A DNA stretch of 64,000 nt from Candidatus Saccharimonadota bacterium (GCA_019352195.1 JACAFG010000005.1:156287-220286), one strand, 5' to 3'. Positions 25,721 through 43,760 are shown, numbered from the stretch's first letter. Numbers and translations are program-made. Notes: generated by a model from the sequence alone, not told the origin.

Positions 25721-25806
25721 GCCGCTGTGGTGGAATGGTAGACACAAGGGACTCAAAATCCCTCGAGGGCAACTTCATGTCAGTTCGACTCTGACCAGCG
25801 GTACCA
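25721..25806 (+). tRNA. tRNA-Leu (anticodon CAA), long variable arm
   Basis: GCCGCTGTGGTGGAATGGTAGACAC..anticodon loop CTCAAAA..T-arm GTCAGTTCGACTCTGAC..CAGCGGT-A-CCA. Confidence 0.85.
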
Positions 25807-25823
25807 GCAATGATCAAACTAAA

Positions 25824-25853
25824 ATAACGCCTTTGTTAAGGCGTTATTTTAGT
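25824..25853 (+). terminator. hairpin + T-run after tRNA-Leu (ATAACGCCtttgttaaGGCGTTATTTT)
   Basis: 8-bp stem; same hairpin recurs at ~29050 and ~34640. Confidence 0.65.
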
Positions 25854-26020
25854 TCTGTAAAAGGTGGGTGCCACTGCGTATATCGGAAAGTCATTATTCG
25901 AATCAAGTGTAGTAATTTTACAAGCTAAGCTTGCACTTGCATTAAGTGGATTAAATTCGGTAAAAGTTATATAATATTCAACGTCCATTCGTTGTTTGAC
26001 ATCGGTGTAGCAGAAATGAG

Positions 26021-28150
26021 TTGATTTATGTGTATCAGCCATACCCATACCAGGTCCCGGTTTTACATGCCATCGACTTAGCCCGTAAGTCGGGCAAAAG
26101 AAGTGCTCTCGTTGTCTTGGCCTCTGGTCTTGGCAAAACGGTAGTAGCAGGATTTGATATTCGTCGCTTCATGAGCAGCCACCCTGGGGCAAAGGTCTTG
26201 TACCTGTGCCACCAGAACTAAATACTGCGGCAGGCTCGTAGGGAACTAGAGGAGAATATCCTGCCTAACAAGTACAATCATGGGTTCATGATTGGCGACG
26301 ATCGGGCGATCCATGGCGTCGATTTGTTGTATGCGTCATTCCAAACGATGCATCGCCATCGTCGACGTTTTCGGTCCGATGAGTTTGACTACGTTGTAGT
26401 CGACGAAAGTCACCACGGTCCAGCGCCCACGTATCTTCCGACACTGGAATACTTCACCCCGAAGTTTCTGTTGGCTATCACCGCTACTCCAGACCGTATG
26501 GATCAGCAAGATATTGGTGAAATTTTTGGCGATCCGATCTTCAGGATCGAGCTAGAAGACGCTTGGGCACGCGGTTTGCTCGCGCCAGTTGATTACCGTG
26601 TAATGACCGACGAATGGCAAAATTTGGAGGTACTCGACACGCCAATTGGGAAACTGAGCATAAAACAGCTCAATAAGACCATTTTTGCGACCAAGCGTGA
26701 TGAAGAGATTGTCCGCATCATTGAGGGCAGGATCATGCACCTCTTTGAGCCGCGGGTAATGATTTTCTGCCCGCGTATTAGTCATGCCGAGCACATTGCT
26801 GACCTCATGGAAGGCGCGACCGCTATTCACTCCATGCTTACGAGCACCGAGCAAGAAGATCGGCTAAACGGTTTTCGTGATGGTAAGTACCGTGTCGTCA
26901 GCACCGTCGACATGTTTAACGAGGGCATTAATGTTCCAGAAGCGAATGTCATCGTGTTCCTACGCTCAACGGCTTCGCGTACGATTTTTTTCCAGCAACT
27001 GGGCCGTGGGCTCCGCAAGAGCAAAACAAAGAAACATGTCCTGGTTCTTGATTTTGTAGCGAACTGTGACCGTTTGCTTATACTCGATGAACTCAGGGGC
27101 GGCGTTAACGAGCGGCTCACCAAGCTGCGCTCAAGGACGCCCGGAGGCGATACACCAATCGTGATCGACTCAGGGGATTTTATATTCGACGAGGCCGTAC
27201 GTGACGTACTTAAGATACTCGCATCGATCAGGGGTAGGTACTCGAACGAGGAGCTGATAGAGATTTTCCGAGCCAAGGCGCTAGAGCTTGGGCGCAATCC
27301 GACCGGTGATGATGTCGACGCCGATCCGGCGTTGCCAAGTAGGGCGCTGTACTATAAGCGATTCGGTAATTGGAGCAAACTGCTGCGACTCGTAGATCTA
27401 GACGCGGCCTTCTTCAGGTCTGATGATCGTCTGATTCATGAACTCAAGAAACTAGCGGACCAACTGGAAAGAGCGCCCTCGACCAAGGACGTTAAGGATA
27501 CACATTGGATGGCGGCACCAAAGACTTACTACCAGCGATTTGGCAAGAGTTGGTCTGAGGTTCTCGCTAAAATCGGTCTTACTCCTGCTAGAAAATTCCT
27601 CTCCGACAAGGAGCTGCTCGATAAGTTGCGAGCCAAGTATCAAAGTTGGACTGAGCAATTTCTTACCATGGCGAATATAGATGCCGATTCGGAGATGGCT
27701 CATTCTTCGACATACAGGGAGAGGTTTGGCTCGCTAGATAGCGCGTTATTGCGAGCGGGTGTCACGGAAGATATTCAAGTTCAACACCAAAAAGCGGTGC
27801 TGACAAAGCGTCTGAAAGAGCTTGGAGACCGACTCGGCCGTACACCTGGGCGTCGAGACGTCGATAAAGCCTCAGATATGGCGGACAGCAGCACTTATCG
27901 GAAGCTGTTCGGAAGTTGGAACAGTGCACTAGGTACCGCTGGATATCCGCAAATTCGGGTGCGTCGGACCCCAGAGATGATGCTTGCGGACCTCCGAATG
28001 CTCGTCGATAAATACGGTAAGTTGTCGCAACCTATCATCAATTCCGAATCAGGAGTTGCTTCATCATCCACGTATGCATTGAAGTTCGGCTCAATAGCGA
28101 ACGCTGCTAGGCTTGCGGGAGTTGAACCGAATAACTCTCGTATCAAATAA
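26021..28150 (+). pseudogene. DEAD/DEAH (SF2, res-subunit-like) helicase fused to 5 tandem ~50-aa HEAR-like repeats; interrupted by in-frame TAA at 26219-26221
   Basis: ORFs 26021-26221 and 26288-28150 are in the same frame; Q-motif PYPYQ, Walker A ASGLGKT, then stop, then DESHH (motif II), helicase C-domain; C-terminal repeats ..LGRxP..S.TY..RFGSW..AL..AG. Confidence 0.7.
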
Positions 28151-28304
28151 TTTCCGGTCATGTGTTAGCATGACGTAATTCTTGATGACCACATCGAGAA
28201 AGCCGGTACGATAACCCGGTGCAGTCACTAAATGTTATTTAGTCTGATGAGTCTGAAAAGACGAAACTGCAAATCACCCGCTACTTTTTGGCGAGTACTA
28301 TTTT

Positions 28305-28353
28305 AGTTCGAACGTCGTTGACGGTGGTGTACCAAAGAACTTATGCTCATACG
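28305..28353 (+). repeat. island repeat copy C (AGTTCGAACGTCGTTGACGGTGGTGTACCAAAGAACTTATGCTCATA)
   Basis: member of GTTCGAAC..GGTGGTGTACCA..ACTTATGCT family. Confidence 0.8.
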
Positions 28354-28369
28354 AGAGTCTCTCCACAAA

Positions 28370-28630
28370 CTAGTAGTGGTAACGACAGGCAAATATTCGA
28401 ATTTCTTCATTTATCACTGTGTAAACGAGACGATGCTCATCTGTTATTCTTCTAGACCAAGATCCAGCCAAGTCTTCGCGTAAAGGCTCAGGCTTGCCTA
28501 GGCCTTCAAATGGGCTCCGCTGGCAGTCTCTAACTAGTTGATTTATCTTCTTGAGAATTTTTTTGTACTGAGATTGCCAATAGACGTAATCATCCCAACC
28601 GTCTGGAGTAAAACTAATTTGTCTGCTCAT
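28370..28630 (-). CDS. yoeB: YoeB/Txe-family toxin
   Basis: WDDYVYWQ..PFEGLGKPEPL..WSRRITDEHRLVY..ACRYHY near-canonical YoeB. Confidence 0.9.
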   Translation of the reverse strand: MSRQISFTPDGWDDYVYWQSQYKKILKKINQLVRDCQRSPFEGLGKPEPLREDLAGSWSRRITDEHRLVYTVINEEIRIFACRYHY

Positions 28631-28881
28631 TATTCAGAAATAGCGTGAGATGATACATTCCCGCTCGCTGCGTCGGCAAACCCGCGACGCAAACGCTTGG
28701 CATTATTTTTATTTCCAAGCAAATAGTCAGTTTCTACTTTTGAGTTGTATTGCTCGAGCGGCATAGCGACGATCGTGCTGCCATCAGTACGAGTAATTAG
28801 TAAAACATCCTGATCGTCAATCACCTGATCAAAGTACTTCTTTGAATCTTTGCGAAAATTAGAAATGGTAGTTACTTTCAT
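28630..28881 (-). CDS. yefM: YefM/Phd-family antitoxin
   Basis: Phd/YefM N-terminal fold (TTISNFRKDSKKYFDQV..LLITR); 1-nt overlap with yoeB. Confidence 0.85.
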   Translation of the reverse strand: MKVTTISNFRKDSKKYFDQVIDDQDVLLITRTDGSTIVAMPLEQYNSKVETDYLLGNKNNAKRLRRGFADAASGNVSSHAISE

Positions 28882-29004
28882 GGTTGTCTCCTTGTATGTT
28901 AAATTGTACGCTAAAACGTACGTTAATACAATGAATTTAGCACGGTTCGTAAATTATGGGCTCTCAGTATAAAAGCCTACCCATTCTTTTCGAACCAATA
29001 GTTT

Positions 29005-29083
29005 GGTTCGAACGTCTAGCACGGCGGTGTACAGCGCAGATCGAACTAAAATAACGACTTTGTGTGAAGGCGTTATTTTAGTT
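29005..29083 (+). repeat. island repeat copy D plus copy of tRNA-Leu 3' flank hairpin
   Basis: GGTTCGAACGTCTAGCACGGCGGTGTACAGC..GATCGAACTAAAATAACGACTTTGTGTGAAGGCGTTATTTTAGTT. Confidence 0.8.
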
Positions 29084-29302
29084 TTTGGAATAGTGGGTAC
29101 CAACCAATACCTTGTAGTTCCAAAACGGAAAGAGCCCCCGGCTGCGGAGGATTTCCTATGCTGGAGGCTATAAGTCGAAGGCCAGTTGTGGGTCTTGATT
29201 GCCACGGCTAATCTCCGTGACATATTTGGGTAATTCCTTGCTCGTCGGATAGTAATGCTGACGGCAGGCACAGCGTGATTCACCCAACCACGACTCATAG
29301 CA

Positions 29303-29848
29303 TTAGTGAGTTTTGCTTAACGGTTTGCCGCATTGAAGACAGAGCACACGACCTTCGTAGCGAAATATGGTTGGTAGATCACCGGCGGCCGCTTTTTGTA
29401 GCAGAACATCGTCAACATCAACACCAAAGTAAGTAGCGATTTTTTCTGGCTGAAAGAAAACAAGATTTTGCAGCCAGGTTTTTGGTAAGAATAGCTCTCT
29501 GACGATTGAATTGACGAACGCTTCTAGGAGCCAGTACTGCCTAGAGGAATATACATCCTTTATTCCAAAACTCTTAATGAGGTACCAGTGAACGATCTCA
29601 TGGACAACCGAGAAGCGAAACTCGTTTTGACTAGAGTCGCTTTTTACCTTCACCACATAACCTTGGCCGCTATGAAATAGCGCTGCAGGTCCAGCTAAAT
29701 CTGACGAAATAGTAAGTCCGAGGCCTAACAATTCACACATGTGGATCGGGTCGAGAATAAATCCTTGGTCTCGGCGCAATACTTTCGAACGAGAAAGAGC
29801 GTCCAAATGTGTCGCCGAGCCATAAGCTAACACCTCTTCTCTTGCCAC
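29303..29848 (-). CDS. ImmA/IrrE-family zinc metallopeptidase (DUF955) with C-terminal zinc ribbon
   Basis: HEIVHWYL (HExxH) motif; C-terminal CLQCGKP..; no partner HTH gene seen. Confidence 0.65.
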   Translation of the reverse strand: MAREEVLAYGSATHLDALSRSKVLRRDQGFILDPIHMCELLGLGLTISSDLAGPAALFHSGQGYVVKVKSDSSQNEFRFSVVHEIVHWYLIKSFGIKDVYSSRQYWLLEAFVNSIVRELFLPKTWLQNLVFFQPEKIATYFGVDVDDVLLQKAAAGDLPTIFRYEGRVLCLQCGKPLSKTH

Positions 29849-29980
29849 TTTAGCCTCCTGTACCGTTTGGTTTTTAAGGGACGTGGTTACGTAATCAGTT
29901 TATTGAGCGCGGACGAATCTATCTAGTCAACAATTCTTGCCTTAATTTGCTTTTAGTAAAATCTCGTTGCGCCTAAGTAC

Positions 29981-30030
29981 AGTTCGAACATCCCCCACGG
30001 TGGTGTACCATTTGGATCGAACTCGACATA
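29981..30030 (+). repeat. island repeat copy E
   Basis: AGTTCGAACATCCCCCACGGTGGTGTACCATTTGGATCGAACTCGAC. Confidence 0.8.
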
Positions 30031-30421
30031 GCGAAGCTAAAGATAGTAGGCTGATTTGATGATGGTTAAGTAAACTGCGATAGAGCGCTTTTGCTTAATC
30101 AAGTTTTCATTTGCATTAGTATTGGATCGATCGAGCAGATTCATGCAATCGCCCCTAGCTATTCGCAGAAAGTATCACCATACTGATGAGCACGCTAGTA
30201 TAAGGTTCTACTCAATGAAGCGCCGGGATCACAAGTACCGCAACGAATCGGGTAAAATCACGGTATAATTCTTGGTTATGCCTACCATCATTCTGAACTT
30301 GCTGCTGACACTGCTTTTGAATTCCATACTTCATCATCGATTCTATAGCAATCTCAGGATTAGTTGCCCTATCAATGCACGTTAGGCATGGCGCATAGTA
30401 ACAACCTTATGAGGAGCTTTC

Positions 30422-30958
30422 ATGACCGAATTACCACCCGAGATAAATAGTTTTGTCGCTGATACTCGCGAAGACTTAATTGTAAATGCCATCGAAATAT
30501 TTGACACTATCAAGCAGTCACTGCTCGTGCTAGATAAAAATCTTACAGTCGTACTGGCTAATGCTTCGTTTTACCGAAACTTTCAATTTACCAAAAAGGA
30601 AACTGAAGGTACCCGTATTTATGATGTCGGCAACGGACAATGGCAAAGTGCTCGGCTCAAATCATTGCTCGAAAAAATTATTCCAGAACAAAAAGAAGTG
30701 AACGACTACGAGCTTGTACATACATTTGATCACGTTGGCGAGCGGGCAATGCTGCTGAATGCGCGAGAAATTATTCGTCAAGACAATCGCCAAGAAGTTA
30801 TTTTGCTGGCCATCGAGGATATAACAAATAAGAAGTTTATGGAGCAGCAGACAAAGGATGCCGAATCGCGCATCAACAAGATTCTCGAGAATTTGGTTGG
30901 GTCCTCCGAACGATACACGGGTGGGACAGGTTCCCCATTGGCCAAGCCGCTGAAATGA
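30422..30958 (+). CDS. stand-alone PAS-domain protein
   Basis: PAS fold pattern (..LVLDKNLTVVLANASFYRNF..); no output domain; translationally coupled to next gene. Confidence 0.6.
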   Translation: MTELPPEINSFVADTREDLIVNAIEIFDTIKQSLLVLDKNLTVVLANASFYRNFQFTKKETEGTRIYDVGNGQWQSARLKSLLEKIIPEQKEVNDYELVHTFDHVGERAMLLNAREIIRQDNRQEVILLAIEDITNKKFMEQQTKDAESRINKILENLVGSSERYTGGTGSPLAKPLK

Positions 30959-31332
30959 CCGACCGACGTTCTTCAAACGCGGTTTATATGCGCGAAGATC
31001 TATTGTGGATCGAGGTGGTGGGCGATCAAAACGGTGAAACAATTCGCGCTATGGGAGAGCTTATTGACGCGCAGATTACTATCTTGCGTAGGGCTCATAA
31101 GCCCGTATTAGTACTTGATGACCTAACGCGTATCGGCAATGCCAATACCGATGCCCTGAAAGGTGTGGCCATTTTAGCTCGGATGCTCGACTATGATCTC
31201 GCCGCCATGCTCGACAAAAAATCGGCGCTGATGCGCGGAGGCACTAACCTCCTGCTCACATCCATTGGGAGAGCCGATGCGCGTTATTTTTCTGACCGAG
31301 ATAAAGCTATGAATTGTCTTCGCAACGGATAA
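30955..31332 (+). CDS. STAS-like (anti-sigma-antagonist fold?) small protein
   Basis: 4-nt overlap with PAS gene; weak STAS-like pattern (VLVLDDLTRIGNANTDALKGVAILARML). Confidence 0.35.
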   Translation: MTDRRSSNAVYMREDLLWIEVVGDQNGETIRAMGELIDAQITILRRAHKPVLVLDDLTRIGNANTDALKGVAILARMLDYDLAAMLDKKSALMRGGTNLLLTSIGRADARYFSDRDKAMNCLRNG

Positions 31333-31391
31333 TTTCAGTATTTTGCGCTAAACATAAGAGGCACTCGAGAGAGTGCCTCTTATGTTTAGAA

Positions 31392-31580
31392 ATTGGTCGG
31401 GGCGGGACTGGTCATGGAAGACGTCGCGGCGGTGTGGCTTACTAACTAACAAAGCAACGGGCTCAAACGACGGACTTAACTAAATCAGACTCTATTTGAA
31501 CCGGACATTCTTAACTCGATGTGCCACATCTAGGAGCTAATTTATATCCTCCTGTGTTCCGAAATTAATATATCAAATTA
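31392..31580 (+). repeat. ~190-bp repeat, copy 1 (GGTCGGGGCGGGACTGG...CTAGGAGCTAATTTAT..CCTCC...TATCAAAT)
   Basis: ~85% identical to 37666-37850; directly preceded by hairpin 31357-31380. Confidence 0.8.
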
Positions 31581-31647
31581 ATTTATTGTGAATCAAGTAT
31601 TTATATACAGTCAGGCGGTGGCTAATTTATACTCGATGTGGCTTGCG

Positions 31648-31695
31648 CATTTCGGGCGTCGCCCACGGTGGTGTACCAATGTTCTTATGCTTATA
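31648..31695 (+). repeat. island repeat copy F
   Basis: CATTTCGGGCGTCGCCCACGGTGGTGTACCAATGTTCTTATGCTTATA. Confidence 0.8.
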
Positions 31696-31820
31696 ACGGC
31701 CTATCAAGGGCGCTATTTGCGTATTAAGCTTCTATAATGAACAACAGTGGACATTTGAAGCGAGCTATTGAGCTAGTAGTCCAATACTGAGCGGACTCAC
31801 TATAAGCGCCGAATTAAAAA

Positions 31821-31849
31821 AGTGCCCTCATGGTTGAGGGTACTTTTTT
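31821..31849. terminator. bidirectional terminator hairpin
   Basis: AAAAAAGTGCCCTCatggttGAGGGTACTTTTTT. Confidence 0.7.
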
Positions 31850-31856
31850 ATTGTTT

Positions 31857-32039
31857 TTAGCTTGTTCTCGGATGACCATGAGCGGCGTATTCGTCGAGTA
31901 GCTCTTTCTGCTCGATGTTTGAGTGAGCAGCAGCCGTTTCGATAAGGCGCTTCTGATCCTTCGCCTTTAACTCGTAGAAATGATTGTCGGTCTTGGGGGG
32001 AGAGAAAAGTTTAGAAAGTTTGCGTAGAATGCGTGTCAT
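31857..32039 (-). CDS. small protein downstream of zeta-like kinase (possible cognate partner)
   Basis: 60-aa ORF overlapping zeta-like gene by 4 nt. Confidence 0.4.
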   Translation of the reverse strand: MTRILRKLSKLFSPPKTDNHFYELKAKDQKRLIETAAAHSNIEQKELLDEYAAHGHPRTS

Positions 32040-32737
32040 TTGAGCTTCTCCTCTAGCAGCTCCCTAGTATAGGGCGCTTTTAGATAATGATCAACGTTTG
32101 TAATATTTATTACGTATTTATATTGTAACGTATCAGCGTTCTTATTAATGAGGTATAAGTAAATTTTGTTTCCGAACTCTTCTTTGCAACGATTTACATT
32201 TTCTTTTGCCGAAAAGTATGCATTGATGAAGGTTTCTTTTGGAACCATCCGACCTTCGCGTAGCTCACGCGCTTTGGTTATGTCCCAAGCTACTAAGGGA
32301 TCTTGGTGCACATAAAGAATTACAGGTTGTCGGCCGTGTTTTATTGCACGCTCAATGTTTTTGTAAGCTAAGTCGTATCTAGCAAACGTACCGTCAAAGA
32401 GAAAACTAAGTTGCTTGTTTAGTGCATGGTCTAAAATCTTTTGAACCGCTAACGATGCTGCGCCTTGAACTTCATCAGAGTTATTCCCGGTGTAACCCGG
32501 TATAGTTGCTCGGATATCATCAGGATCTATTCGTAATATACCGCTTACGCCATGAACTTCTTTGTAGGCTTGTAAAAAGTTGCGAGACCACTCTGTTTTG
32601 CCTGCGCCTGGCGATCCGGCCATGAAAAACGTTTCTGGATGAGGGTTGGGAGTGAACTTTTGAGGATCAACAAATTGCTCGACTAAGCTGCGCTTGTTGG
32701 CTTTGACGAATTTTACGGCTTCTTCAGATAAACTCAT
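32036..32737 (-). CDS. zeta-toxin-family P-loop kinase
   Basis: Walker A GSPGAGKT, ..IDPDDIR..P.Y.., ..LFDGTFARYD collinear with PezT/zeta. Confidence 0.65.
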   Translation of the reverse strand: MSLSEEAVKFVKANKRSLVEQFVDPQKFTPNPHPETFFMAGSPGAGKTEWSRNFLQAYKEVHGVSGILRIDPDDIRATIPGYTGNNSDEVQGAASLAVQKILDHALNKQLSFLFDGTFARYDLAYKNIERAIKHGRQPVILYVHQDPLVAWDITKARELREGRMVPKETFINAYFSAKENVNRCKEEFGNKIYLYLINKNADTLQYKYVINITNVDHYLKAPYTRELLEEKLK

Positions 32738-32778
32738 GTTCTGATAATATCAGTTTTTACATGCGCCACTTGAATCCT

Positions 32779-32826
32779 AGTTCGAACGTCGCCCACGGTG
32801 GTGTACCATTAAACTTATGCTTCGAA
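32779..32826 (+). repeat. island repeat copy G (near-consensus)
   Basis: AGTTCGAACGTCGCCCACGGTGGTGTACCATTAAACTTATGCTTCGAA. Confidence 0.85.
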
Positions 32827-33412
32827 TGCTGTACTTAGTTGTCAGTGTTAAAACGCACTAATGAATTCTCCTCGTACTCGTCTCACGCTAATTATGTTTA
32901 TTCTAGTGGCAGTTGTACTTGGTCGGTTGGCTACTCAAATTGCCAACTACTCCATCTATCGAATACAACCTGGTGCCTCGTCCTGCCAAAGAATTTCTGG
33001 GCCTAGCCTATGCCCTATCCTTGAGTCGTCATCGAGAAATTACGGATAGCCGATAGTTACAAGTACTGTTCTAATCAAACCTAAAATTTCGGATGGGGCA
33101 TACCAATTTTCGGAGGAGGCCTTTGAACGCTCCCCGGCCTTACGGCCAGCTTTCTCTCCGTATATTAATGCCTTTGAAGACGACTGGATATTATGGAGCG
33201 TCTTTTTTCTCTTAGCCTTAATAGTTATGCGGTCTCATCAAAAAAAACCGTCGCTCGCTTTAATGTAGTCTTCTTATTTGGTGCATTGCACAATATTAGC
33301 AGCGTGCCGTAGCGGTGACCGTAATAGCTTATACAAACCCTCAAGTGGCGAAATATAGAGCTTATTTTCACAGTCTCCCATGGAAGTCTATTTCTTTTGA
33401 TATTATTAGGTC

Positions 33413-33808
33413 ATGAATACTCTCGTAAAGCGGCTTCGGGACGGGCAGGATCTCATGTTAGAGATAACTAAACTCGTCGGGGAAAATCACGTACAGGCAG
33501 GTATCATCCTGTCGGCTGTAGGCAGTCTAAAAGAATCAAATATACGCGTACCTATTATCGACGGCGCCGTGAAATACATTAATCCGACTAATTTAGAGAT
33601 CGACAACTTGCATGGAACGGTGTCGGTAAATGGCTGCCACCTTCATATTTCTGTGTCTGATATCGACGGTAAAGTTATGGGCGGCCATTTAAAAACCGGT
33701 TGCATTGTTCGAACAACATGCGAGCTGGTGATTGGAGTATTGGACGATCATTCATTCCGACGAGAGCCCGATTCCGATACTGGTTACGATGAGCTGGCGG
33801 TCACTTGA
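33413..33808 (+). CDS. DUF296 / PPC-domain protein
   Basis: ..GIILSAVGSLKESNIR..GHLHISVSD.. pattern typical of PPC/DUF296. Confidence 0.55.
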   Translation: MNTLVKRLRDGQDLMLEITKLVGENHVQAGIILSAVGSLKESNIRVPIIDGAVKYINPTNLEIDNLHGTVSVNGCHLHISVSDIDGKVMGGHLKTGCIVRTTCELVIGVLDDHSFRREPDSDTGYDELAVT

Positions 33809-34002
33809 TTCGCTGCTGACGAGGTTACATCGCATTTCGAACGTCTTTTACGATGGTTTTCCAGCAGCCATCGAACCAAAACAGCGCATTTCTAGTGTCT
33901 TTCTCTTGTGCATTCAAAAATAAACTTGTTTAGATTGAGGGAGTTAGTTGTCGGAGCTTTAACCTTGACCGCGACTAACTGTGTAGCTATAATGTAATTA
34001 CT

Positions 34003-34239
34003 ATGAAGGCATCAATCGTCACCATCGGCAATTCAAAGGGTATACGCATTCCGAAGCCCCTGCTCGAGGAAAGTGGCTTAAGCGGTGACGTTGAATTAAA
34101 AGCTGTTAAGGGTGAAATCAAGATTGTTGCAGCAACACGCGATCCGAAGATATCGGAAACCATGCTTCTTTCCGAAAAAGTGCTTGCACGAGACTGGCTA
34201 CGCCCCGAAGAGGATGAGGCATGGTCAAGTTTACAGTAG
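34003..34239 (+). CDS. mazE: MazE/AbrB-type antitoxin
   Basis: IGNSKGIRIPKPLLEESGL; paralogue of 7786-8067 product. Confidence 0.75.
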   Translation: MKASIVTIGNSKGIRIPKPLLEESGLSGDVELKAVKGEIKIVAATRDPKISETMLLSEKVLARDWLRPEEDEAWSSLQ

Positions 34240-34553
34240 GGCAAGTCGTCACAAGTGCCTTTCCATTTTCTGATCTCACGACACAGAAGTTGAGGCCAGC
34301 ACTAGTTGTTGCGATCGGGGACTTCGAAGACATAATTTTATGCCAAATCACCTCAAAAACGTATTCGAGCTCTAATCCTATCAAGTTAACAGCTGCAGAT
34401 TTTGTCGAGGGTAGCCTGCCGGTGGATAGTTTTATACGTCCTGACAAATTATTTACGGCCGATCAATCAATCGTACATTAAGCATATGGCAGAGTCAGTG
34501 ATGCAAAGCTGCAGCACGTTCTGGCCGATATTCGCCAGTTATTTACGACCTAG
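34221..34553 (+). pseudogene. mazF: MazF/PemK toxin with in-frame TAA at 34479-34481
   Basis: N-terminal 86 aa (..RPALVVAIG..ITSKT..) then TAA; the same frame continues AYGRVSDAKLQHVLADIRQLFTT*, the expected MazF C-terminus. Confidence 0.65.
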
Positions 34554-34586
34554 ACGTAGTGGTCGAGTATCTTGAAGTTGAATTGC

Positions 34587-34662
34587 AGTTCGAACGTCGC
34601 CCACCGTGGTGTACCAGCAATAATCAAACTATGATAACGCCTTTATTAAGGCGTTATCTTTG
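34587..34662 (+). repeat. island repeat copy H plus second copy of tRNA-Leu 3' flank
   Basis: AGTTCGAACGTCGCCCACCGTGGTGTACCA + GCAATAATCAAACTATGATAACGCCTTTATTAAGGCGTTAT (compare 25807-25850). Confidence 0.85.
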
Positions 34663-34749
34663 TATATATCGCTTTGGGTCCCAAGTATTATTCAAAACTT
34701 TTTTTAACGGAAAGAGCCCCCAGGCGCGGAGGATTTACGGGCTTGAGGG

Positions 34750-35355
34750 CTAAGCGGTTAGTTTGATGGGATCAGCAACTTTGTGGCGCTGATATCCAGG
34801 ATGCCAGAGCCGGACCACAGCCTGAACGACTGCGAGCTGGCTGCCGGGAATGAACATGAGCGATGCCCTCGTGAGCAATCGCACCTTGCGTTCCTGCGAG
34901 GCGTAATTTGCCTCTTCGTCGCAGGACAATGGGAAGGCGTATTCGCTCGTGGTTGTGGTGATGTTGAACCCGCGCCCTAGTATTTTGCGGCCCAAGAACA
35001 GAATACGTGGTTCAGCGTGGCGGATCGTCACAAAAATTACATCTGCGACCTTGATACCGTTACGTGCCATTACGTGCTTGGCGCAAGTCATATTGCTGAT
35101 GTTATCTCGGGATTGATCCTCGAAGAGGATGTGGTCTGCTGGTACTCCCAAGTCAATCATGATGGCGCGCATTTCGGCGGCTTCGGTGAATTCGTTCTGA
35201 TTAGTGTCAAGGACACTCCAGCGTCCGCACGCCGTAACATAATCGACTTTGCCCGACAGCCACAACGCGGCAGCTTTGCGGGCAATCGATTTCGTGCCTT
35301 CAGCGCCCGGTCCACGACCAAAGGCAATGGCAATAGTTGTCAATCGAAACACCAT
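34750..35355 (-). CDS. DUF218 / YdcF-ElyC-SanA family protein
   Basis: YdcF-like Rossmann-like core; family assignment by overall pattern. Confidence 0.5.
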   Translation of the reverse strand: MVFRLTTIAIAFGRGPGAEGTKSIARKAAALWLSGKVDYVTACGRWSVLDTNQNEFTEAAEMRAIMIDLGVPADHILFEDQSRDNISNMTCAKHVMARNGIKVADVIFVTIRHAEPRILFLGRKILGRGFNITTTTSEYAFPLSCDEEANYASQERKVRLLTRASLMFIPGSQLAVVQAVVRLWHPGYQRHKVADPIKLTA

Positions 35356-35439
35356 CCTCAGTTAGGGCGGATAGAGTAGTATATAGTAACATTAATTTAA
35401 CTATAGTGCAACATTATTGCGTTGTAATAATCGTATCGA

Positions 35440-35471
35440 AGTTCGAACGTCGCTTACGGTGGTGTACCATT
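35440..35471 (+). repeat. island repeat copy I
   Basis: AGTTCGAACGTCGCTTACGGTGGTGTACCATTG. Confidence 0.8.
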
Positions 35472-35549
35472 GTGTACAAAGTAAATAGTTACGACGTCTT
35501 GACGTCATAACGTTATTAGATCATACTCAAAGTATATAAGGAGACCCAT

Positions 35550-35780
35550 ATGGCAACCCTAACCGAGCGCACCACGGTATATCTTAATCCGTATGTAAAA
35601 AAGTATCTGCAGCATGAGGCCGTTGAACAGAATAAATCGATATCCGAATTGATCAACGAGCAATTGGCTGAGTTGCTGGAAGACGCTGAGGATTCGGCAG
35701 CCATTAATTCTCGTAAGACCGAATCTCTTACGTCGTGGGACAAGGTTAAGGCCGATTTAGTGCGAGACGGATTGCTTTAG
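35550..35780 (+). CDS. relB: RHH (RelB/CopG-like) antitoxin
   Basis: RHH N-terminus (TTVYLNPYVKKYLQHEAVEQNKSISELI). Confidence 0.65.
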   Translation: MATLTERTTVYLNPYVKKYLQHEAVEQNKSISELINEQLAELLEDAEDSAAINSRKTESLTSWDKVKADLVRDGLL

Positions 35781-35785
35781 CCCCG

Positions 35786-36037
35786 ATGTACGTAATTGTC
35801 TTGCGAACCAGCGCCACGAAAGAGTTACGCAAGCTGCCTAGTCCTATCCGGCAGCAAATCATTATCCTGATTGATTCGCTGGCAAGCGATCCAAGACCTC
35901 ATGGCGTGAAGAAAATGGCGGGGGTTGAAGCTTGGCGAATACGTTTTGGTGACTACCGAGTAATTTTCTCGATTCAAGATACCCGGTTATTGATTGAGAT
36001 TATCAAAATTGGTAACCGACGTGATGTCTACCGGTAA
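35786..36037 (+). CDS. relE: RelE/ParE-family toxin
   Basis: ..GVKKMAGVEAWRIRFGDYRVIFSI..LIEIIKIGNRRDVY RelE/StbE signature. Confidence 0.8.
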   Translation: MYVIVLRTSATKELRKLPSPIRQQIIILIDSLASDPRPHGVKKMAGVEAWRIRFGDYRVIFSIQDTRLLIEIIKIGNRRDVYR

Positions 36038-36063
36038 CATTAACTCATCGTTATTTTGATCGC

Positions 36064-36110
36064 AGTTCGAACGTGGGTGACGGTGGTGTACCAATGAACT
36101 TATGTTTGTA
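36064..36110 (+). repeat. island repeat copy J
   Basis: AGTTCGAACGTGGGTGACGGTGGTGTACCAATGAACTTATGTTTGTA. Confidence 0.8.
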
Positions 36111-36160
36111 TTTACAACTAAGAGCCTCGGACGCGCCGAGATCTCTCAGTCGTCCAAGGC

Positions 36161-36697
36161 TCATTTCAGGGGCTTTCGCCAAACGCTACCGTCATATTCC
36201 CCTTCGGCATCATTGAAGTATCTTTCGGCAATGCCAACTGGTCTACCATACAGCCTCCGCCAGAATGGCCAGCCACTCCACCGAAAGCGGGGCCCGCTGA
36301 CGAGAACTATCTCGGTGTGCCCATCAGCACGGGCTTTGTTTTCCATGTGGGCGACAAGTGCACGGCCAATGCCTGTTCGGCGTGTGAGAACGTATGCGTC
36401 AGTGAGCTCGATTGGGTTTTCGCTGCGAGCAAAGCCGCGGATAATTTTGTCGGGTGGTTTGAGCGTCATCACGCCCAATAGCACCTGGCTTCCAGGTTGT
36501 TTTGCAACGACGCAATATCCTTGTGAGGGTTGGTTGCGATAGCTCAGTATAGCCGCCAATACCTCGGTAATCTCGTCCATGGCAACTTCGTCAGTGGGCG
36601 GATTGCGAATGGCGCTGATAAGTACCGGCAGCAAACTCTCCCTGGGGTTGTGAATCGTGAATAGGTCGCAAATTTCGATGTCACTGGTCATGTTCAT
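36161..36697 (-). CDS. GNAT-family N-acetyltransferase
   Basis: acetyl-CoA site RRTGIGRALVAHMENKA. Confidence 0.6.
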   Translation of the reverse strand: MNMTSDIEICDLFTIHNPRESLLPVLISAIRNPPTDEVAMDEITEVLAAILSYRNQPSQGYCVVAKQPGSQVLLGVMTLKPPDKIIRGFARSENPIELTDAYVLTRRTGIGRALVAHMENKARADGHTEIVLVSGPRFRWSGWPFWRRLYGRPVGIAERYFNDAEGEYDGSVWRKPLK

Positions 36698-36962
36698 CTC
36701 CGCCGGAGAAGGAATGGGTTGCTAGATATAACAGCTTTGGCTGTCGGCATTACCATAGCTTCTTTCCCGTAATACATCAAGTCTTGGTAAGTACGTAAGG
36801 ATGCCGCTTGCGGGGTTCTTACTTTGCTCCACCACTTTGCAAATTGGTTCGACTGTCCTGGATGGTGGTAAACCAGTACTAATGAACTTAAATATCGTCG
36901 TTGTTAGCGTATTTAGGGTGTGATATAGCCAGGTAGCTGGTCGGAATTGTTGGTAGGGTGAG

Positions 36963-37529
36963 CTAGTATCCGAACGATTTAGGCTGCGTCTTTTCAGCCG
37001 ACAATACCATCTCGTATTCGGGCCGTAGTTTACCATTGGAGAGTCTTGTCTCGGATTCAGGCAATTGGCTCGTGATCTTAAATCCGAGCCGTTTATAAAA
37101 CGATACTGCATTCGTGTTATAGGTTACTACGTTGAGTACGATATCGTCATCTCGTCCGAGCCACTTGAGCGCTTCAGCGGTTAAGGCGTAACCCGCGCCC
37201 TGGCCTTGATACTCTGGCAACACATAGAGCGCGCGAAGCTTGTGTTTGCCATCTTGCTTACGCGCTTCACAGTGGCCTACAACTTTATACCCTATAGTCG
37301 CTACCAGCCGAATAGTGGTTGAGTCGTGCTTCTCATTCGCGATTCTGTCAGTGAACTCCTGGATTGCGTCAGGTTGGTCCCACCAGTTCGTTGCCGCAAC
37401 AATATCCGCGTAGGTAATGCCATATTCAACGTTTGGATAGGTTGCTCGCCAGGTAAGCGTCTGCACCTCTCGAATGCCTGCAGCGTCGCTTGGAACCGCG
37501 CGGCGGATCTTGATATCGTAGCTTGTCAT
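36963..37529 (-). CDS. GNAT-family N-acetyltransferase
   Basis: YVLPEYQGQGAGYAL motif A; start at ATG 37527-37529. Confidence 0.7.
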   Translation of the reverse strand: MTSYDIKIRRAVPSDAAGIREVQTLTWRATYPNVEYGITYADIVAATNWWDQPDAIQEFTDRIANEKHDSTTIRLVATIGYKVVGHCEARKQDGKHKLRALYVLPEYQGQGAGYALTAEALKWLGRDDDIVLNVVTYNTNAVSFYKRLGFKITSQLPESETRLSNGKLRPEYEMVLSAEKTQPKSFGY

Positions 37530-37665
37530 GGGTTCAGTATATCTGAGCCACGACGCTAAGTAATAGCTTGGCTTTTTCTGTGTCATTCGAACATGCTCCC
37601 ATGACTCATTGACTATGACGTAAAACGCAAAAGCAGAGACGCTCGTTAGAGCCTCTCTGCTTTTG

Positions 37666-37850
37666 ATTGGTCGGGGCCGGACTTGGACTGGAAGACGTCG
37701 CGGCGGTGTGGCCGACTAACTAACAACGAAGCGGACAAAACTTACTACTACTTAGTAACGCGGACTGAACGGGACATTCTTAACTTGATGGGCCACATCT
37801 AGGAGCTAATTTATGTCCTCCTGTGTCTTCCGTAGTTAATATATCAAATC
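37666..37850 (+). repeat. ~190-bp repeat, copy 2
   Basis: preceded by hairpin AAAAGCAGAGAc..TCTCTGCTTTTG at 37628-37664. Confidence 0.8.
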
Positions 37851-37997
37851 TCGGAAACGAAGATCAAGAGTTTTTTTGGGTTAAATTATTTTACGCGGCC
37901 GGCTTGCCAGTTAGAATTTTCAATTCGCGAAGCTGCGGCGCCAAATACTGACCGGGTTTTTTGACACCCCTCCATTTGCATCGGGGTTTGGTATACT

Positions 37998-38612
37998 TTG
38001 CCCATGATTAAGGCAATTACTTTCGATTTGGACGGCGTGTACTTCCCTAGCGGCAAGGCTAATTTCATAAAAGCTGTCGTTTCGCTTGGTGTAGCAGAAG
38101 ACGAGGTGAAGCGGGTTTTTCTTAAGAGTTTTGAAATGAATGAGCGTTACAAAATAGGCGTCATGACTGATGATGAGTTTTGGACTTGGGCGGCGGAGCA
38201 ATGGCAGTTAGACATGGCTCCAAAGCAGCTGATCGAACTATTAGGCGACAGCTATGAGGTAGATCCGAAGGTCGTAGAAGTCGTGAGAATGGCGCGTCGC
38301 AGTGGTTATAAGACACTGGTTTGCTCCAATAATTTTCCCGCGCGCGTCAATGAGTTGCAGCGTAAGTTTGCGTTTCTCGATAACTTTGATGCGGCGGTAT
38401 TCTCTTATGAAATTGGTGCCGTGAAGCCGTCTGAGGCCATCTTCCAGGAGCTGGTCAAGCGATCGGGTGTTATGGCCGAAGAAATTGCATTTGCTGATGA
38501 TGATGCGGAAAAAATATCCGGAGCGGTGGCTATCGGGATGACCGCTTTCGTATACGATGGTTTTGAACCGTTTATTGATCACCTCAATTCACTAGGAGTG
38601 AAATTAGCGTGA
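37998..38612 (+). CDS. HAD-superfamily hydrolase
   Basis: motif I ITFDLDGV; capped HAD length. Confidence 0.7.
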   Translation: MPMIKAITFDLDGVYFPSGKANFIKAVVSLGVAEDEVKRVFLKSFEMNERYKIGVMTDDEFWTWAAEQWQLDMAPKQLIELLGDSYEVDPKVVEVVRMARRSGYKTLVCSNNFPARVNELQRKFAFLDNFDAAVFSYEIGAVKPSEAIFQELVKRSGVMAEEIAFADDDAEKISGAVAIGMTAFVYDGFEPFIDHLNSLGVKLA

Positions 38613-39091
38613 TCATCAAAAGTCATGCTCCCGAAAACTACGATTGCCCTATTTGCTTGGGCCTACTAGGCAGTGCTAGTCAAAAGACGTTGATAAAAGC
38701 ATCAGATTTTGTCTATCGAGATGAGCTGGTGAGCGCGTTTATAAACACGTTTTTCATTGGCAAGAATGGCGGGCATGTAATCGTCGTGCCAAACGAGCAC
38801 TTCGAAAATATCTACACATTACCCGTCGCTCATGGCCATCGTATTTTTGATGTGGCCCAAATGATTGCCTTAGCAATGAAAGCAGCCTATGACTGCGACG
38901 GCATTACCACGCGCAACAATAACGAGCCTGCTGGTGACCAGCACGCATTTCATTATCATTTTCACGTTTTTCCGAGATATGTGGACGACGACTATAACTC
39001 AGTGTCACCGGCCGAAAAACGACTAACAGAGCCTGCTGAACGGGCCGGATATGCCGCTAAAATTAAAGCCGCGCTTGCAGCAGGAGAATAG
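38609..39091 (+). CDS. HIT-family (histidine triad) protein
   Basis: HYHFHVFPR triad; 4-nt overlap with HAD gene. Confidence 0.65.
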   Translation: MIIKSHAPENYDCPICLGLLGSASQKTLIKASDFVYRDELVSAFINTFFIGKNGGHVIVVPNEHFENIYTLPVAHGHRIFDVAQMIALAMKAAYDCDGITTRNNNEPAGDQHAFHYHFHVFPRYVDDDYNSVSPAEKRLTEPAERAGYAAKIKAALAAGE

Positions 39092-39137
39092 CTAGCTGCC
39101 CCGGTGGGCTCTCGCTGCTTTGTCCCCTTCACGAACA

Positions 39138-39175
39138 CATTTCGAACTTCGCCCCCCCCGGTGACGTATCAACAG
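39138..39175 (+). repeat. degenerate island repeat copy K
   Basis: CATTTCGAACTTCGCCCCCCCCGGTGACGTATCAACA; resembles copy F 5' half. Confidence 0.5.
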
Positions 39176-39454
39176 GAATGTAACTAACGTAACGCCCTCA
39201 TGAAGGCTCTGGGTTAGGTGGCGCAATCGTGGTTACGCATTGTGCTTTGATTCGGGAAACTCCTCAGGCCATACGTATTGCTGAGGAGTTATGGGTTGTC
39301 ATATCTTAGTCAGCGAAGATGGCATCAAACGCGTGATCAGACAAGCCGAAGTGTTTTTGGTAGTAGTAGCGAGTCGAAGCCGCCATGTCGGCCCTACGCT
39401 GCTTCTAATAGCAGTCACTAAATTCATCGTCACGGTAGCTGTTATTATTAACGT

Positions 39455-40027
39455 ATGACTACGCCAAACGCCATCATTGTACATGGTATGACGAGCCGGG
39501 ATGAATATTACGATGATGCTATGCCATCAATGAGTAATAATCACTGGGTACCGTGGTTGCAGAAGCAGCTACTGATTCGGGGAATAGCGACGGCTACTCC
39601 TGAAATGCCGTTAGCATATGCGCCAGATTACGAGGTGTGGCGGCGCGAGTTTGAACGCTATGAGATTGGACCCGAGACGATTTTGGTGGGTCACAGTTGT
39701 GGGGGTGGTTTTTTAGTGCCCTGGCTGAGCGAACATCAGGACAAGCGCGTCAAACAAGTTTTGCTGGTGGCACCCTGGCTTGATCCGTTTCGAGAAGATA
39801 CTACCGACTTCTTTGAGTTTGATATCGATCCCGGCCTCGCAACGCGTTCACCGACATGGTTGTTTCATTCAGATGACGATAGCGTGGGGGTCCAGACTAG
39901 CGTCACTACGATCCGCGTGGCCCTGAAGGACATTCGCGACGTGGGATTTCATGGGTATGGTCATTTTACCTTCAACGACCTTGGGACAACGGCGTTTCCG
40001 GAATTGTTATCCACCTTACGTAGTTAG
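39455..40027 (+). CDS. alpha/beta serine hydrolase, YdeN/RBBP9 family
   Basis: nucleophile elbow VGHSCGG; family size 190 aa. Confidence 0.6.
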   Translation: MTTPNAIIVHGMTSRDEYYDDAMPSMSNNHWVPWLQKQLLIRGIATATPEMPLAYAPDYEVWRREFERYEIGPETILVGHSCGGGFLVPWLSEHQDKRVKQVLLVAPWLDPFREDTTDFFEFDIDPGLATRSPTWLFHSDDDSVGVQTSVTTIRVALKDIRDVGFHGYGHFTFNDLGTTAFPELLSTLRS

Positions 40028-40144
40028 AAAACTGGGTAGGCTACCGGGTGCTTGAACGTGAGTCATCACGATAATTCCCCAATGGCACGGCGTATTTGGT
40101 AATAGCTAGATTTTTGACCGCGGGATTTTTTCATCTGGTAACGG

Positions 40145-41371
40145 TTACTTAGCGACGGGTTGGTTAAGGGTTAAGTAAAAGAAGTCTTTGTTATATCCGT
40201 GCAGATAAGCATAGCCACCATTTGCAAGCGTGTTTAATATGCTCTGATAGGAGTAGCTGCCATTACCGAGCGGCTGAAACGTGACGTACCGAACCCAGAA
40301 AGCGTTTATATCCAGTTGAATTGCTTCGGTAGCGCCCCCGGCTTTAAGGGCGCTTGCTAGGGTTGCTGCCGTGAGCGACGGGCCAACGGCGTAAATAAGA
40401 TTACCGTTAGGGGTTAATCCGACACCCGAGCGCCAGGTATAAATCGAGTTGGTCGTAGTTCTGCCCCAGACAGCATAACCTCCTGAGATAGCGTCAGACG
40501 TAACCGTGCCATTATCTAAGATCAGCGGTCCATTTTGTCGTATGGCCTCGATTGGCTTGGTTGATGATGCTGGCGTCTGGTATCTGTTAATCATCAGGCT
40601 GCCATCTTTGTAAATGGTCAGGGTGCCCAGGCCAGTTTGAAGCGGAACATAGGTCGTTGGTCCAACTACCATGCCGTAGTGGCCGTCTTTATATTGAAAA
40701 CCGCCGTTAAAGCCCGCGACGAGCTCATTGCTGGCAATATCTGAGGCCGGAATAAGCCCAGGTCCGGGATGGCCAAGAATTGCACCCGGGTGTTCGGTAC
40801 CGGCCACAGAATGCAGATGCAGCTGATGCGCGTTCATTTGCACAAGCGCAACGATGGCGTAGCTTCGTGCCGAGTCTGGCCTGACAAATGTCTTCGCCAT
40901 GAGAGACTGCCCTTTAAACTGTGGCAGTTCAACCAGACTCCAATTTCCTTCGCCGGGTAATTTGGCGAAATTCGGCTGAAAGTAATTCAAGGGCGCAAGA
41001 TTGAGGGCTTGTAGATTGGCGGTGGCGTCGACAGTTGGGCTTAAGGCTGCTGGATTTGGGAAAGTTGCTGGTTGAGATGGTCCCGTGCTGAAGATGTTGC
41101 TATTTGGTTTAGCGATAGTACCATACGCGAGCTGCTTGAGGTGGTCACTGAGCGAAAGCATCGATGCCTCGAGGGCAATCGTAGCCCGATTACCAATGGC
41201 GGGCCGAAGATAATTGTCGGCAAAGTTAGCTACCAATGATGGCTGAAACTCTATGGTGGCAAGCCCAATGAGTCCAACAGCTACCACAGCAACCATGCCG
41301 GTAAGAAGCTTGCGTAGAGTACGCTTCTTCCTGGGTCCATCTAACGTATATTTGGGTTTTGGTGAGAACAA
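40145..41371 (-). CDS. phosphodiester glycosidase-family (DUF2233/NAGPA-like) secreted protein
   Basis: N-terminal TM anchor; AGFNGGFQ and GVGLTPNGNLIYAVG regions. Confidence 0.5.
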   Translation of the reverse strand: MFSPKPKYTLDGPRKKRTLRKLLTGMVAVVAVGLIGLATIEFQPSLVANFADNYLRPAIGNRATIALEASMLSLSDHLKQLAYGTIAKPNSNIFSTGPSQPATFPNPAALSPTVDATANLQALNLAPLNYFQPNFAKLPGEGNWSLVELPQFKGQSLMAKTFVRPDSARSYAIVALVQMNAHQLHLHSVAGTEHPGAILGHPGPGLIPASDIASNELVAGFNGGFQYKDGHYGMVVGPTTYVPLQTGLGTLTIYKDGSLMINRYQTPASSTKPIEAIRQNGPLILDNGTVTSDAISGGYAVWGRTTTNSIYTWRSGVGLTPNGNLIYAVGPSLTAATLASALKAGGATEAIQLDINAFWVRYVTFQPLGNGSYSYQSILNTLANGGYAYLHGYNKDFFYLTLNQPVAK

Positions 41372-41623
41372 ACTAGCTGGATTCCGTTTCCTAGAACGTA
41401 CGCTCTATGTAATAAAATTGATAATGGCCGGGCTACGTCTATGATACCAGAGTAAGCGAACGTTGCTCGCTTTGGAAGTCGCTGACTGTCGCTCCATTGA
41501 CGGTGCTTTCACGGCTCTCTGGGTTTGCCACGGGAGCCCACGCTGCTCAAATTGTCAGTTGAGCCAGCCGCCTTCTCGGGCTTAACTCCTTGCCCAGGCT
41601 TGTCTCCGAGACGTAGACGAGCG

Positions 41624-42010: not shown

Positions 42011-42019
42011 CTTGCGCTG

Positions 42020-43711: not shown

Positions 43712-43760
43712 GGTTCGAACGGCGCCTACGGTGGTGTACTCATGTACTTTTGAGTGTACC
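43712..43760 (+). repeat. island repeat copy L (last); partial copy at 43487-43515
   Basis: GGTTCGAACGGCGCCTACGGTGGTGTACTCATGTACTTTTGAGTGTA; 43487-43515 CATCATACCACTTATGCTTCGATTATC. Confidence 0.75.

Follow-up and report, generated by a model that had tools for sequence, protein, structure and literature searches.

A gene-cassette array probably anchored at the 3' end of a tRNA-Leu gene in a Candidatus Saccharibacteria chromosome

The DNA analysed here is a stretch of 64,000 nucleotides (nt), one strand, from a Candidatus Saccharimonadota bacterium (GCA_019352195.1 JACAFG010000005.1:156287-220286), which is called the window at this full length. The analysis placed the sequence in contig JABBYD010000014.1 of NCBI assembly GCA_017884045.1, which bears the name Candidatus Saccharibacteria bacterium. 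Its region from 25.8 to 43.7 kb is probably a gene-cassette array that is anchored at the 3' end of the tRNA-Leu(CAA) gene of this Candidatus Saccharibacteria chromosome, a reading to which we assign a probability of roughly 0.6. It consists of gene-sized units, each of which ends in a copy of a short conserved site, here termed the M site, that mimics the end of the tRNA. Saccharibacteria have genomes of ~1 Mb, live attached to other bacteria and are thought to be poor in mobile elements, and the acquisition of accessory genes by these organisms is poorly understood.

M sites and start modules

The consensus of the M site is GTTCGAAC-N7-ACGGTGGTGTACCA (~29 nt), often with ATCGCA ((W)ATCGCA) just before it. 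The window contains 12 copies (9 good and 3 degenerate), all of which are located on the + strand between 28.3 and 43.7 kb, with none in the remainder of the window. A scan with the pattern TTCGAAC-N7-ACGGTGGTGTAC, allowing up to three mismatches, yielded 10 matches in the same interval and on the same strand, compared with 0.02 expected. M resembles the segment of the tRNA from the T-loop to the CCA end (GTTCGA ... GTACCA) and has the hexamer GTACCA in common with the end of tRNA-Leu, but it differs from the tRNA at about 13 positions and is exactly 5 nt longer (29 versus 24 nt, counted from GTTC to ACCA). With a profile hidden Markov model of M, all significant matches in the window and in related genomes were downstream of tRNA-Leu and on the same strand as the tRNA, and there was no significant match to backbone sequence or to the opposite strand. 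Because this 29-nt non-coding sequence is near-invariant while the proteins of the respective genomes are only 55-70% identical, M must be under selection or subject to exchange, and is no neutral scar. Some sites have decayed (33835, 36847 and 39140, with a possible remnant near 37915-37955), and therefore parts of the array are old and probably immobile.

The M sites divide the region into 12 units of 0.6-4.5 kb, each with one to a few genes, which lie in both orientations (Table 1). Right after ...GTACCA, every cassette opens with a conserved start module, of which there are a few types. Class A reads WWGAACTTATGCTT and often has a terminator behind it, and class B consists of GATCGAACT, a long terminator hairpin and GTGGGTACCA. 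The true tRNA is followed by class B in the window and in the related loci L008, L009 and L020, and by class A in L007, L015, L017, L023 and L031; M is followed by class A in eight cases and by class B in at least six, and thus all four combinations of left and right halves exist. The 10-mer of class A was located 2-4 nt past the TACCA of the tRNA or of M in 11 of its 13 occurrences in 269 kb. In classes A and B, as well as in two rarer classes found in relatives, a terminator-type hairpin lies within about 15-25 nt of the junction, which is what an insert placed directly after the tRNA CCA would need for the tRNA gene to stay functional. The strong hairpins at the junctions are confined to the perfect terminator stems of class B flanks; M sites with a class A flank show no more folding than shuffled sequences do (z from -0.9 to +1.3), and M itself carries a small CGT(C)-loop-(G)ACG stem ~12 nt ahead of ACCA.

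A sequence-only reading of this DNA had reported that the 3' flank of tRNA-Leu, with its hairpin, occurs three times, each time directly after a pseudo-acceptor end, and had taken the copies for attR-like marks of serial integrations. In the window, tRNA-Leu is followed by GCAATGATCAAACT, a hairpin with a 16-bp stem and then ..GGTGGGTGCCA. The copies are real: the sequence GCAATGATCAAACTAAAATAACGCC..GGCGTTATTTTAGTT recurs at 29032-29063 (84% identity) and 34611-34663 (89%), and both recurrences abut GGTGTACAG or GGTGTACCA on their 5' side. However, the list was incomplete, in that there are weaker copies at 33862 and 39170 in addition to the 12-site M family. The concern that the hairpin might be a common terminator found at unrelated loci is not borne out within the window: the hairpin core has two + strand sites at up to three mismatches (shuffled sequences lead one to expect none), the copy at 29 kb has more than three mismatches to the core, and no other place in the window carries it. 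The junctions are indeed att-like, as expected from insertion at the 3' end of tRNA-Leu, but the pseudo-end does not derive from this tRNA as a remnant. Rather, it belongs to the distinct, longer M site, which is conserved across several Saccharibacteria species. The hairpin flank represents just one among several alternative start modules; in other genomes the true tRNA precedes the other main module, and most M sites in the window precede a class A flank. The class B module has been kept after the tRNA or after M in four or more genomes with compensatory changes in its stem, and the similarity between genomes stops at its own ..GGGTACCA.

Three copies of the class A 10-mer lack a recognisable M or tRNA left half. 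They are found at 4517-4534 (+), between the genes for a histidine kinase and a response regulator; at 43488-43505 (+), where the copy reads ATACCACTTATGCTT, abuts the start codon of an open reading frame (ORF) for a cytochrome b-like protein and might be a decayed junction; and at position 19971 (-) of L025. At 28318-28347 (+), the combination of a GTTGAC-form M site and class A reads as a sigma-70-like promoter, TTGACG-N18-TATGCT, directed into the next cassette. A promoter function of M plus class A was rejected on account of the gene orientations, since in three of the four class A cassettes of the window the genes lie on the opposite strand.

Related genomes and a second array

Relatives of the locus were retrieved with two proteins as bait, namely the flanking sortase (homologues with 53-70% identity) and a protein of the distal backbone. 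The neighbours of tRNA-Leu in the window are the sortase and a surface-type protein of 462 amino acids (aa), and the order in the relatives is sortase, tRNA-Leu(CAA), a variable stretch, PAP2, an Nnr-like (NAD(P)H-hydrate repair-type) protein and a RecD-like helicase. The gene content of the variable stretch differs in every genome, while the M site is constant: seven or more related genomes have it at this locus, on the same strand as the tRNA (at least six copies in L009, three to four in L031, two to three in L017, and one each in L007, L008, L015 and L020). No M sites were found in the lineages of L010 and L025. The region from 43.7 to 50.8 kb of the window is missing in L008 and L031, yet contains no M sites.

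The boundaries of sequence similarity between these genomes coincide with the sites. Cassette 8, which encodes a DUF218 protein, recurs in L031 with 85.7% identity over 841 nt (34634-35470), although backbone identity between the window and L031 is no higher than 66-76%, and it has different neighbours on both sides in the two arrays. In the pairwise alignment, similarity extends from the preceding M site to exactly ...GGTGGTGTACCA (35469/35470) and is at chance level beyond both ends. Between L008 and L031, whose backbones are 91% identical, homology breaks exactly at the tRNA ACCA (class B versus class A) and resumes at the distal boundary, and the two arrays share one internal, M-bounded cassette with a 101-aa ORF. 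The ribbon-helix-helix (RHH)-ParE pair of cassette 9 has a homologous pair (74% nucleotide identity) in the tRNA-Leu variable region of L025.

L025 (reverse complement, 12160-12215) also shows a one-gene unit (short-chain dehydrogenase) that lies between the tRNA-Leu end and a direct repeat. In this M-free lineage, the repeat comprises the true tRNA end and its trailer (GCGGTACCAGYAATTATTCT and a terminator), so that the single gene is enclosed by a classical attL/attR pair. L025 was the only genome in which the true tRNA end was seen repeated.

Beyond these relatives, the exact M pattern had one match in GTDB genomes, by chance, and three single matches in metagenome contigs, of which only L006 looks genuine. 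Scans of viral contigs with M patterns gave nothing, or chance matches and a phage tRNA cluster, and no candidate for a donor element or an attP-bearing phage was found in them. The array showed no similarity to known plasmids and phages except for the tRNA itself.

The window contains a second, smaller array behind tRNA-Glu(CTC), with three small units on the tRNA strand that encode an APH-like kinase, a MazEF pair and a RelE/RHH pair, and with a GC content of 0.45-0.50. Its two pseudo tRNA-Glu ends lie inside a 97-nt repeat; they are 29 nt long, compared with 24 nt in tRNA-Glu, they share the GTTC box and the last 10-12 nt with their own tRNA, and both have a class A flank behind them (ATGCACTTATGCTT; ..ACTTATGCTT). 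Because this mimic is also 5 nt longer and shares its ends with its own tRNA, the design of the arrays is general, the left half copying the cognate tRNA and the right half being common to the loci.

Contents of the cassettes

The cassette genes include toxin-antitoxin pairs, acetyltransferases, hydrolases and a dead restriction-like helicase (Table 1), and the GC content of the array is 0.48, compared with 0.54-0.55 in the flanks; a similar drop is seen in L009 and L017. The helicase gene of cassette 1 (26021-28150, +) contains ResIII, Helicase_C and four HNH repeats, and its best PADLOC match is a type IV methyl-directed restriction enzyme. Since its reading frame contains a TAA stop codon (26219-26221), it is probably a pseudogene. 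The 181-aa ORF of cassette 3 has a weak M78 peptidase-like match. Cassette 11, the terminal M of which is followed by a class B-like flank, probably represents two fused units.

Cassette 1 also carries a type III hammerhead ribozyme (28219-28272, +) with an intact core (CUGAUGA ... GAAA, cleavage after GUC), located 69 nt past the helicase ORF and 34 nt ahead of the first M site. Its score of 47.4 bits is just below the Rfam cut-off of 48.5, with a local E value of 1.3e-9. It was rejected as a general feature of cassettes, since in the window it occurs in cassette 1 only and it is present in none of seven related loci.

A second non-coding feature is an element of ~190 nt with a terminator hairpin in front, which occurs twice in the window (31392-31578 and 37666-37849), at 4876-5072 (-) in L008 and beside PAP2 in L031. 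All copies are on the same strand as the tRNA, and in L008 and L031 the element marks where the array ends distally. The copies are 82-92% identical between each other and between genomes, the proteins of which are ~70% identical. A possible structure comprises a long-range helix (GGUGUGGC/GCCACAUC), a hairpin UAGGAGC..UCCUCCU and a variable middle with GGAC repeats. The element has no match in Rfam, and it may be a structured RNA or a protein-binding region.

Table 1. Positions of the tRNA genes, M sites, cassettes and pseudo tRNA ends in the window
Feature	Position	Strand	Description
tRNA-Leu(CAA), intact	25721..25806	+	ARAGORN; Rfam 55.1 bits; gene and synteny same in relatives
Class B start module, first flank copy	25807..25873	+	GATCAAACT, 16-bp-stem terminator hairpin, GGTGGGTGCCA; DNA fold z = -5.4
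Cassette 1	25874..28334	+	Type IV restriction-like superfamily 2 (SF2) helicase with HNH repeats; ends with M 28306-28334
Cassette 2	28335..29034	+	Class A start (AAGAACTTATGCTC); YoeB/YefM toxin-antitoxin on - strand; ends with M 29006-29034 (terminal ACAG)
Cassette 3	29035..30010	+	Class B start 29035-29103 (second flank copy); 181-aa ORF on - strand; ends with M 29982-30010
Cassette 4	30011..31678	+	PAS and STAS-like ORFs; ~190-nt non-coding element 31392-31578; ends with M 31650-31678
Cassette 5	31679..32808	+	Class A start; zeta toxin and 60-aa ORF on - strand; ends with M 32780-32808
Cassette 6	32809..33863	+	Class A start; PCC-domain ORF; ends with degenerate M 33835-33863
Cassette 7	33864..34616	+	Degenerate class B start; MazE/MazF; ends with M 34588-34616
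Cassette 8	34617..35469	+	Class B start (third flank copy); DUF218 ORF on - strand; ends with M 35441-35469
Cassette 9	35470..36093	+	RHH antitoxin and ParE toxin; ends with M 36065-36093
Cassette 10	36094..36875	+	Class A start; GNAT acetyltransferase on - strand; ends with degenerate M 36847-36875
Cassette 11	36876..39171	+	GNAT ORF (-), 190-nt element copy 37666-37849, HAD and HIT ORFs; ends with degenerate M 39140-39171
Cassette 12	39172..43741	+	Serine hydrolase, NAGPA-like, membrane and cytochrome b-like ORFs; ends with last M 43713-43741
M sites from pattern scan	28306, 29006, 29982, 31650, 32780, 33835, 34588, 35441, 36065, 43713	+	
Additional degenerate M copies	36847, 39140	+	
Second, smaller array	6492-9410	+	Follows tRNA-Glu(CTC) 6492-6567
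Pseudo tRNA-Glu end 1	8165-8193	+	GTTCCACAATTGGGACGTTGGGTCTACTA
Pseudo tRNA-Glu end 2	9369-9397	+	..GGGACTACCA

Mechanism, alternatives and known systems

We propose that the 3' end of tRNA-Leu (GTTCGACTCTGACCAGCGGTACCA, 'T') is the anchor site, equivalent to an attB or attI. Cassettes would be gained and lost through conservative site-specific recombination, in which the M|start junction of a circular cassette pairs with either the tRNA end or a resident M site, with strand exchange within or at the edge of the shared GTACCA. Exchange at this position would leave the tRNA with its own T-stem and acceptor strand, and hence a functional 3' half, would make every cassette end in M, and would render the start modules interchangeable; the incoming cassette would bring a new trailer and terminator for the tRNA. 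Newer insertions would be expected to push older ones outward. In addition, whole array heads are swapped between strains by homologous recombination.

The enzyme would be supplied in trans. Because neither the window nor three complete related arrays contain a recombinase gene, we infer that the recombinase is encoded off-locus. The Pfam scan covered all ORFs of at least 150 aa in the window as well as the ORFs of the array, and revealed neither a Phage_integrase nor any other recombinase domain; no cognate integrase was found in the array of L007. The first cassette of the array of L015 contains, at 8790-9355 (- strand of the locus), an intact IS200/IS605-type insertion sequence (IS) that encodes a TnpA with HUH (histidine-hydrophobic residue-histidine) and YxxxQ motifs and has matching end hairpins, CCCTGGGCCTTTAGGCCAGGG and CCTCGGGCTTTAGCCCGAGG. 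This TnpA was rejected as the cassette mover, as the element is an independent IS with its own ends, apart from the M site. Confidence in the assignment to any particular class of enzyme is low. For large serine integrases, attP half-sites have their distal recognition motif 5 bp more distant from the crossover than attB half-sites do (Rutherford et al. 2013, PMC3783163), and at both the Leu and the Glu array the GTTC box is 29 nt from ACCA on the cassette side (M) and 24 nt on the chromosome side (tRNA). This offset suggests a large serine integrase as a lead and not as a test; here no serine integrase gene was seen, the right half-sites have no convincing symmetry of the kind expected from the quasi-symmetric att sites of such integrases (40-50 bp around a central dinucleotide) and vary by 1-2 nt in spacing, and the attP-type junctions (M|A) lie inside the chromosome and are not produced by simple attP x attB integration. 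On prior grounds, a tyrosine integrase is at least as likely.

Several points weigh against an array of mobile cassettes. No recombinase gene of any class was detected in the window with Pfam, NCBIfam and PADLOC, in ORFs, end fragments or gaps, and none is present in the complete variable regions of L009+L027 (15.6 kb), L031 and L008. The bases just after ACCA vary in sequence and in number, which would be unusual for the core site of a recombinase, and no recognisable M sites accompany the L025 homologue of the RHH-ParE pair. The order of cassettes is identical in an independent assembly of the sample, and the evidence includes no excision circle, empty site or within-population presence/absence polymorphism of a single cassette. 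The analysis covered only about a dozen genomes, and scanning public collections for the motif added almost no matches. It should also be noted that one comparison that might be read as exchange at ACCA has a different explanation. L020 and L023 (JGI 3300056832, Logan SRR35816422) encode the same sortase protein and are 100% identical over ~4 kb of backbone, and past ACCA they continue into unrelated DNA (class B with an APH gene versus class A with DUF6197). However, they diverge already from ~170 nt upstream of the 3' end of tRNA-Leu, with 19 differences that include compensatory changes in the anticodon stem. In this pair, the tRNA gene and the array head have been replaced together by homologous recombination and not by exchange at ACCA, and the pair was rejected as proof of the latter.

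Of the other explanations, the decayed residue of many integrase-bearing elements, phage-like or tycheposon-like, from which the integrase and replication genes have been deleted so that cargo and partial-tRNA att scars are left, is unlikely. Such decay has been documented in Prochlorococcus islands, where tandem elements with partial tRNAs between them occur together with scattered remnants (bioRxiv 10.1101/2020.12.28.424599), and both the one-gene unit of L025 between true tRNA-end repeats and the dead helicase gene that adjoins the tRNA in cassette 1 are in line with it. Nevertheless, roughly 45 kb of arrays from seven genomes do not contain a single integrase fragment, the units form a regular series of gene-sized blocks whose ORFs are intact, M has kept both its sequence and its length across species, unlike neutral scars, and a cassette moves as an M-bounded unit. 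The absence of integrase genes and of fragments also counts against the serial integration of self-sufficient elements proposed in the sequence-only reading, that is, against two or three large islands inserted serially or nested into tRNA-Leu, each of which left an acceptor end and a terminator as attR. The three hairpin copies (84-89% identical) would fit this explanation, as would the native-looking appearance of the hairpin module as a tRNA trailer in several genomes. However, nine more sites of the M family split the blocks (25.8-29.0, 29.0-34.6 and beyond 34.6 kb) into units of 0.6-2 kb, so that at least 12 units of 0.6-4.5 kb take the place of three blocks; the repeated left half is M and not the tRNA end, and one unit within the third block is exchangeable by itself. 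Large islands are thus a very improbable explanation.

It is quite unlikely, albeit not to the same degree as large islands, that M and its flanks, instead of being recombination sites, serve as regulatory punctuation in the form of terminators, promoters or processing signals that were copied together with genes, and that the array is remodelled solely by homologous recombination after DNA uptake. The class B flanks and many class A flanks are terminators, the GTTGAC-form M with class A has the promoter-like reading described above, and the L020/L023 swap did occur by homologous recombination. Yet the sites are found only at tRNA-anchored loci and on one strand, while the genes are in both orientations (with three of four class A cassettes opposite), M mimics the cognate tRNA end at two different tRNAs, and the homology blocks stop exactly at ACCA. 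The least probable of the alternatives is movement of the cassettes as single strands through an IS200/IS605-type HUH (Y1) transposase that inserts 3' of ...ACCA, the right end of the element likewise terminating in ACCA and small hairpins being present near both ends. The fixed target (ACCA), after which insertion is precise, the single orientation and the lack of both target duplication and inverted ends agree with such a transposase, and hairpins are available in the start module, ~15 nt from the junction, and in the small stem of M; one related array even contains an IS200-type TnpA. However, this single TnpA resides in a separate, self-contained IS with its own matching hairpin ends, terminator-free M sites have no significant hairpin and fold no better than shuffled sequence, the hairpins of the start modules resemble ordinary terminators, and a 4-nt target would not require the left half to match the cognate tRNA (Leu or Glu), as it does here.

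The proposed cassette array has several features in common with integrons, especially with sedentary chromosomal ones. In both, gene-sized modules are ordered in one direction, with a conserved site at the end of every module and a fixed anchor directly next to the first one; the cassettes are discrete and exchangeable with one site each (here 12 M-bounded units, of which the DUF218 unit and a unit with a 101-aa ORF are shared between arrays), and toxin-antitoxin pairs, acetyltransferases and small ORFs of unknown function are typical contents. Arrays differ between related genomes while the site is conserved, and a single cassette can be shared with different neighbours. The recombination logic would thus be that of attI x attC, but enzyme and site are both unlike those of integrons. 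An intI is absent from the anchor and from the remainder of the 64 kb, a tRNA gene provides the anchor with its 3' end, the genes are in both orientations, and the site is a linear pseudo-tRNA end of ~29 nt without the imperfect hairpin of attC (z about 0) and without R''/L''/L'/R' boxes. A reading of M as attC was rejected on these grounds, that is, because terminator-free sites are unfolded, intI is absent and GTTCGAAC does not fit the R-box consensus (RYYYAAC ... GTTRRRY, by inspection). Sites of the dif/Xer type, as in IMEX (integrative mobile elements exploiting Xer) and pdif modules, were rejected by inspection as well. A dif-like site has a length of 28-30 bp with two inverted 11-bp arms and a spacer of 6-8 bp; the halves of M are not inverted copies, and all M copies are direct and not alternating.

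Like a classical tRNA island or prophage, the array is located at the 3' end of a tRNA gene that has stayed intact, but it has no cognate integrase inside. Cis-mobilizable elements (CIMEs), the accretion arrays of streptococcal integrative elements and the composite staphylococcal cassette chromosome (SCC) islands at rlmH are likewise tandem units between att-type direct repeats that depend on a recombinase in trans. Their units are usually several kb in size, few in number and derived from recognisable integrative and conjugative elements (ICE) or SCC elements, and their anchor is the end of a protein gene. The array resembles them in its recombinase-less tandem units between att-type direct repeats and differs in its numerous gene-sized units, its tRNA anchor and its conserved pseudo-tRNA site. 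The tycheposon islands of Prochlorococcus are also variable, tRNA-adjacent islands of lower GC content in streamlined genomes, with internal, partial-tRNA-like att repeats and with newer insertions that push older ones outward. However, a tycheposon encodes a tyrosine or serine recombinase of its own together with replication genes, and a genome has one or two of them (bioRxiv 10.1101/2020.12.28.424599), whereas the array has 12 units without recombinase or replication genes, has beside the tRNA, where a tycheposon has its recombinase and replication module (helicase/primase), only a pseudogene of a restriction-type SF2 helicase, with no recombinase and no primase, and has as its repeat a separate, conserved mimic that is 5 nt longer and is not a copy of the tRNA.

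Searches of the full-text literature gave no description of integrons or tRNA-Leu arrays in Saccharibacteria, nor of such arrays in other bacteria of the candidate phyla radiation (CPR). As a tentative and rather doubtful generalization, Saccharibacteria, and perhaps other ultra-small CPR bacteria, might use an integron-like capture of genes at tRNA 3' ends (at least Leu-CAA and Glu-CTC), with a double-stranded pseudo-tRNA site extended by 5 bp and an off-locus recombinase, maybe a large serine integrase, that serves several tRNAs. In the window, 18 kb beside one tRNA gene form a modular store of toxin-antitoxin, defence-type and small metabolic genes, of which at least one module has been exchanged between genomes, with a site that is conserved across species. 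The M site offers a simple marker for such arrays in metagenomes. If a dedicated recombinase exists, it would provide a compact natural pair of att sites for genome engineering, and the array would represent an integron-like acquisition of genes with a different site logic, in which a linear mimic of a tRNA end takes the place of the folded attC.

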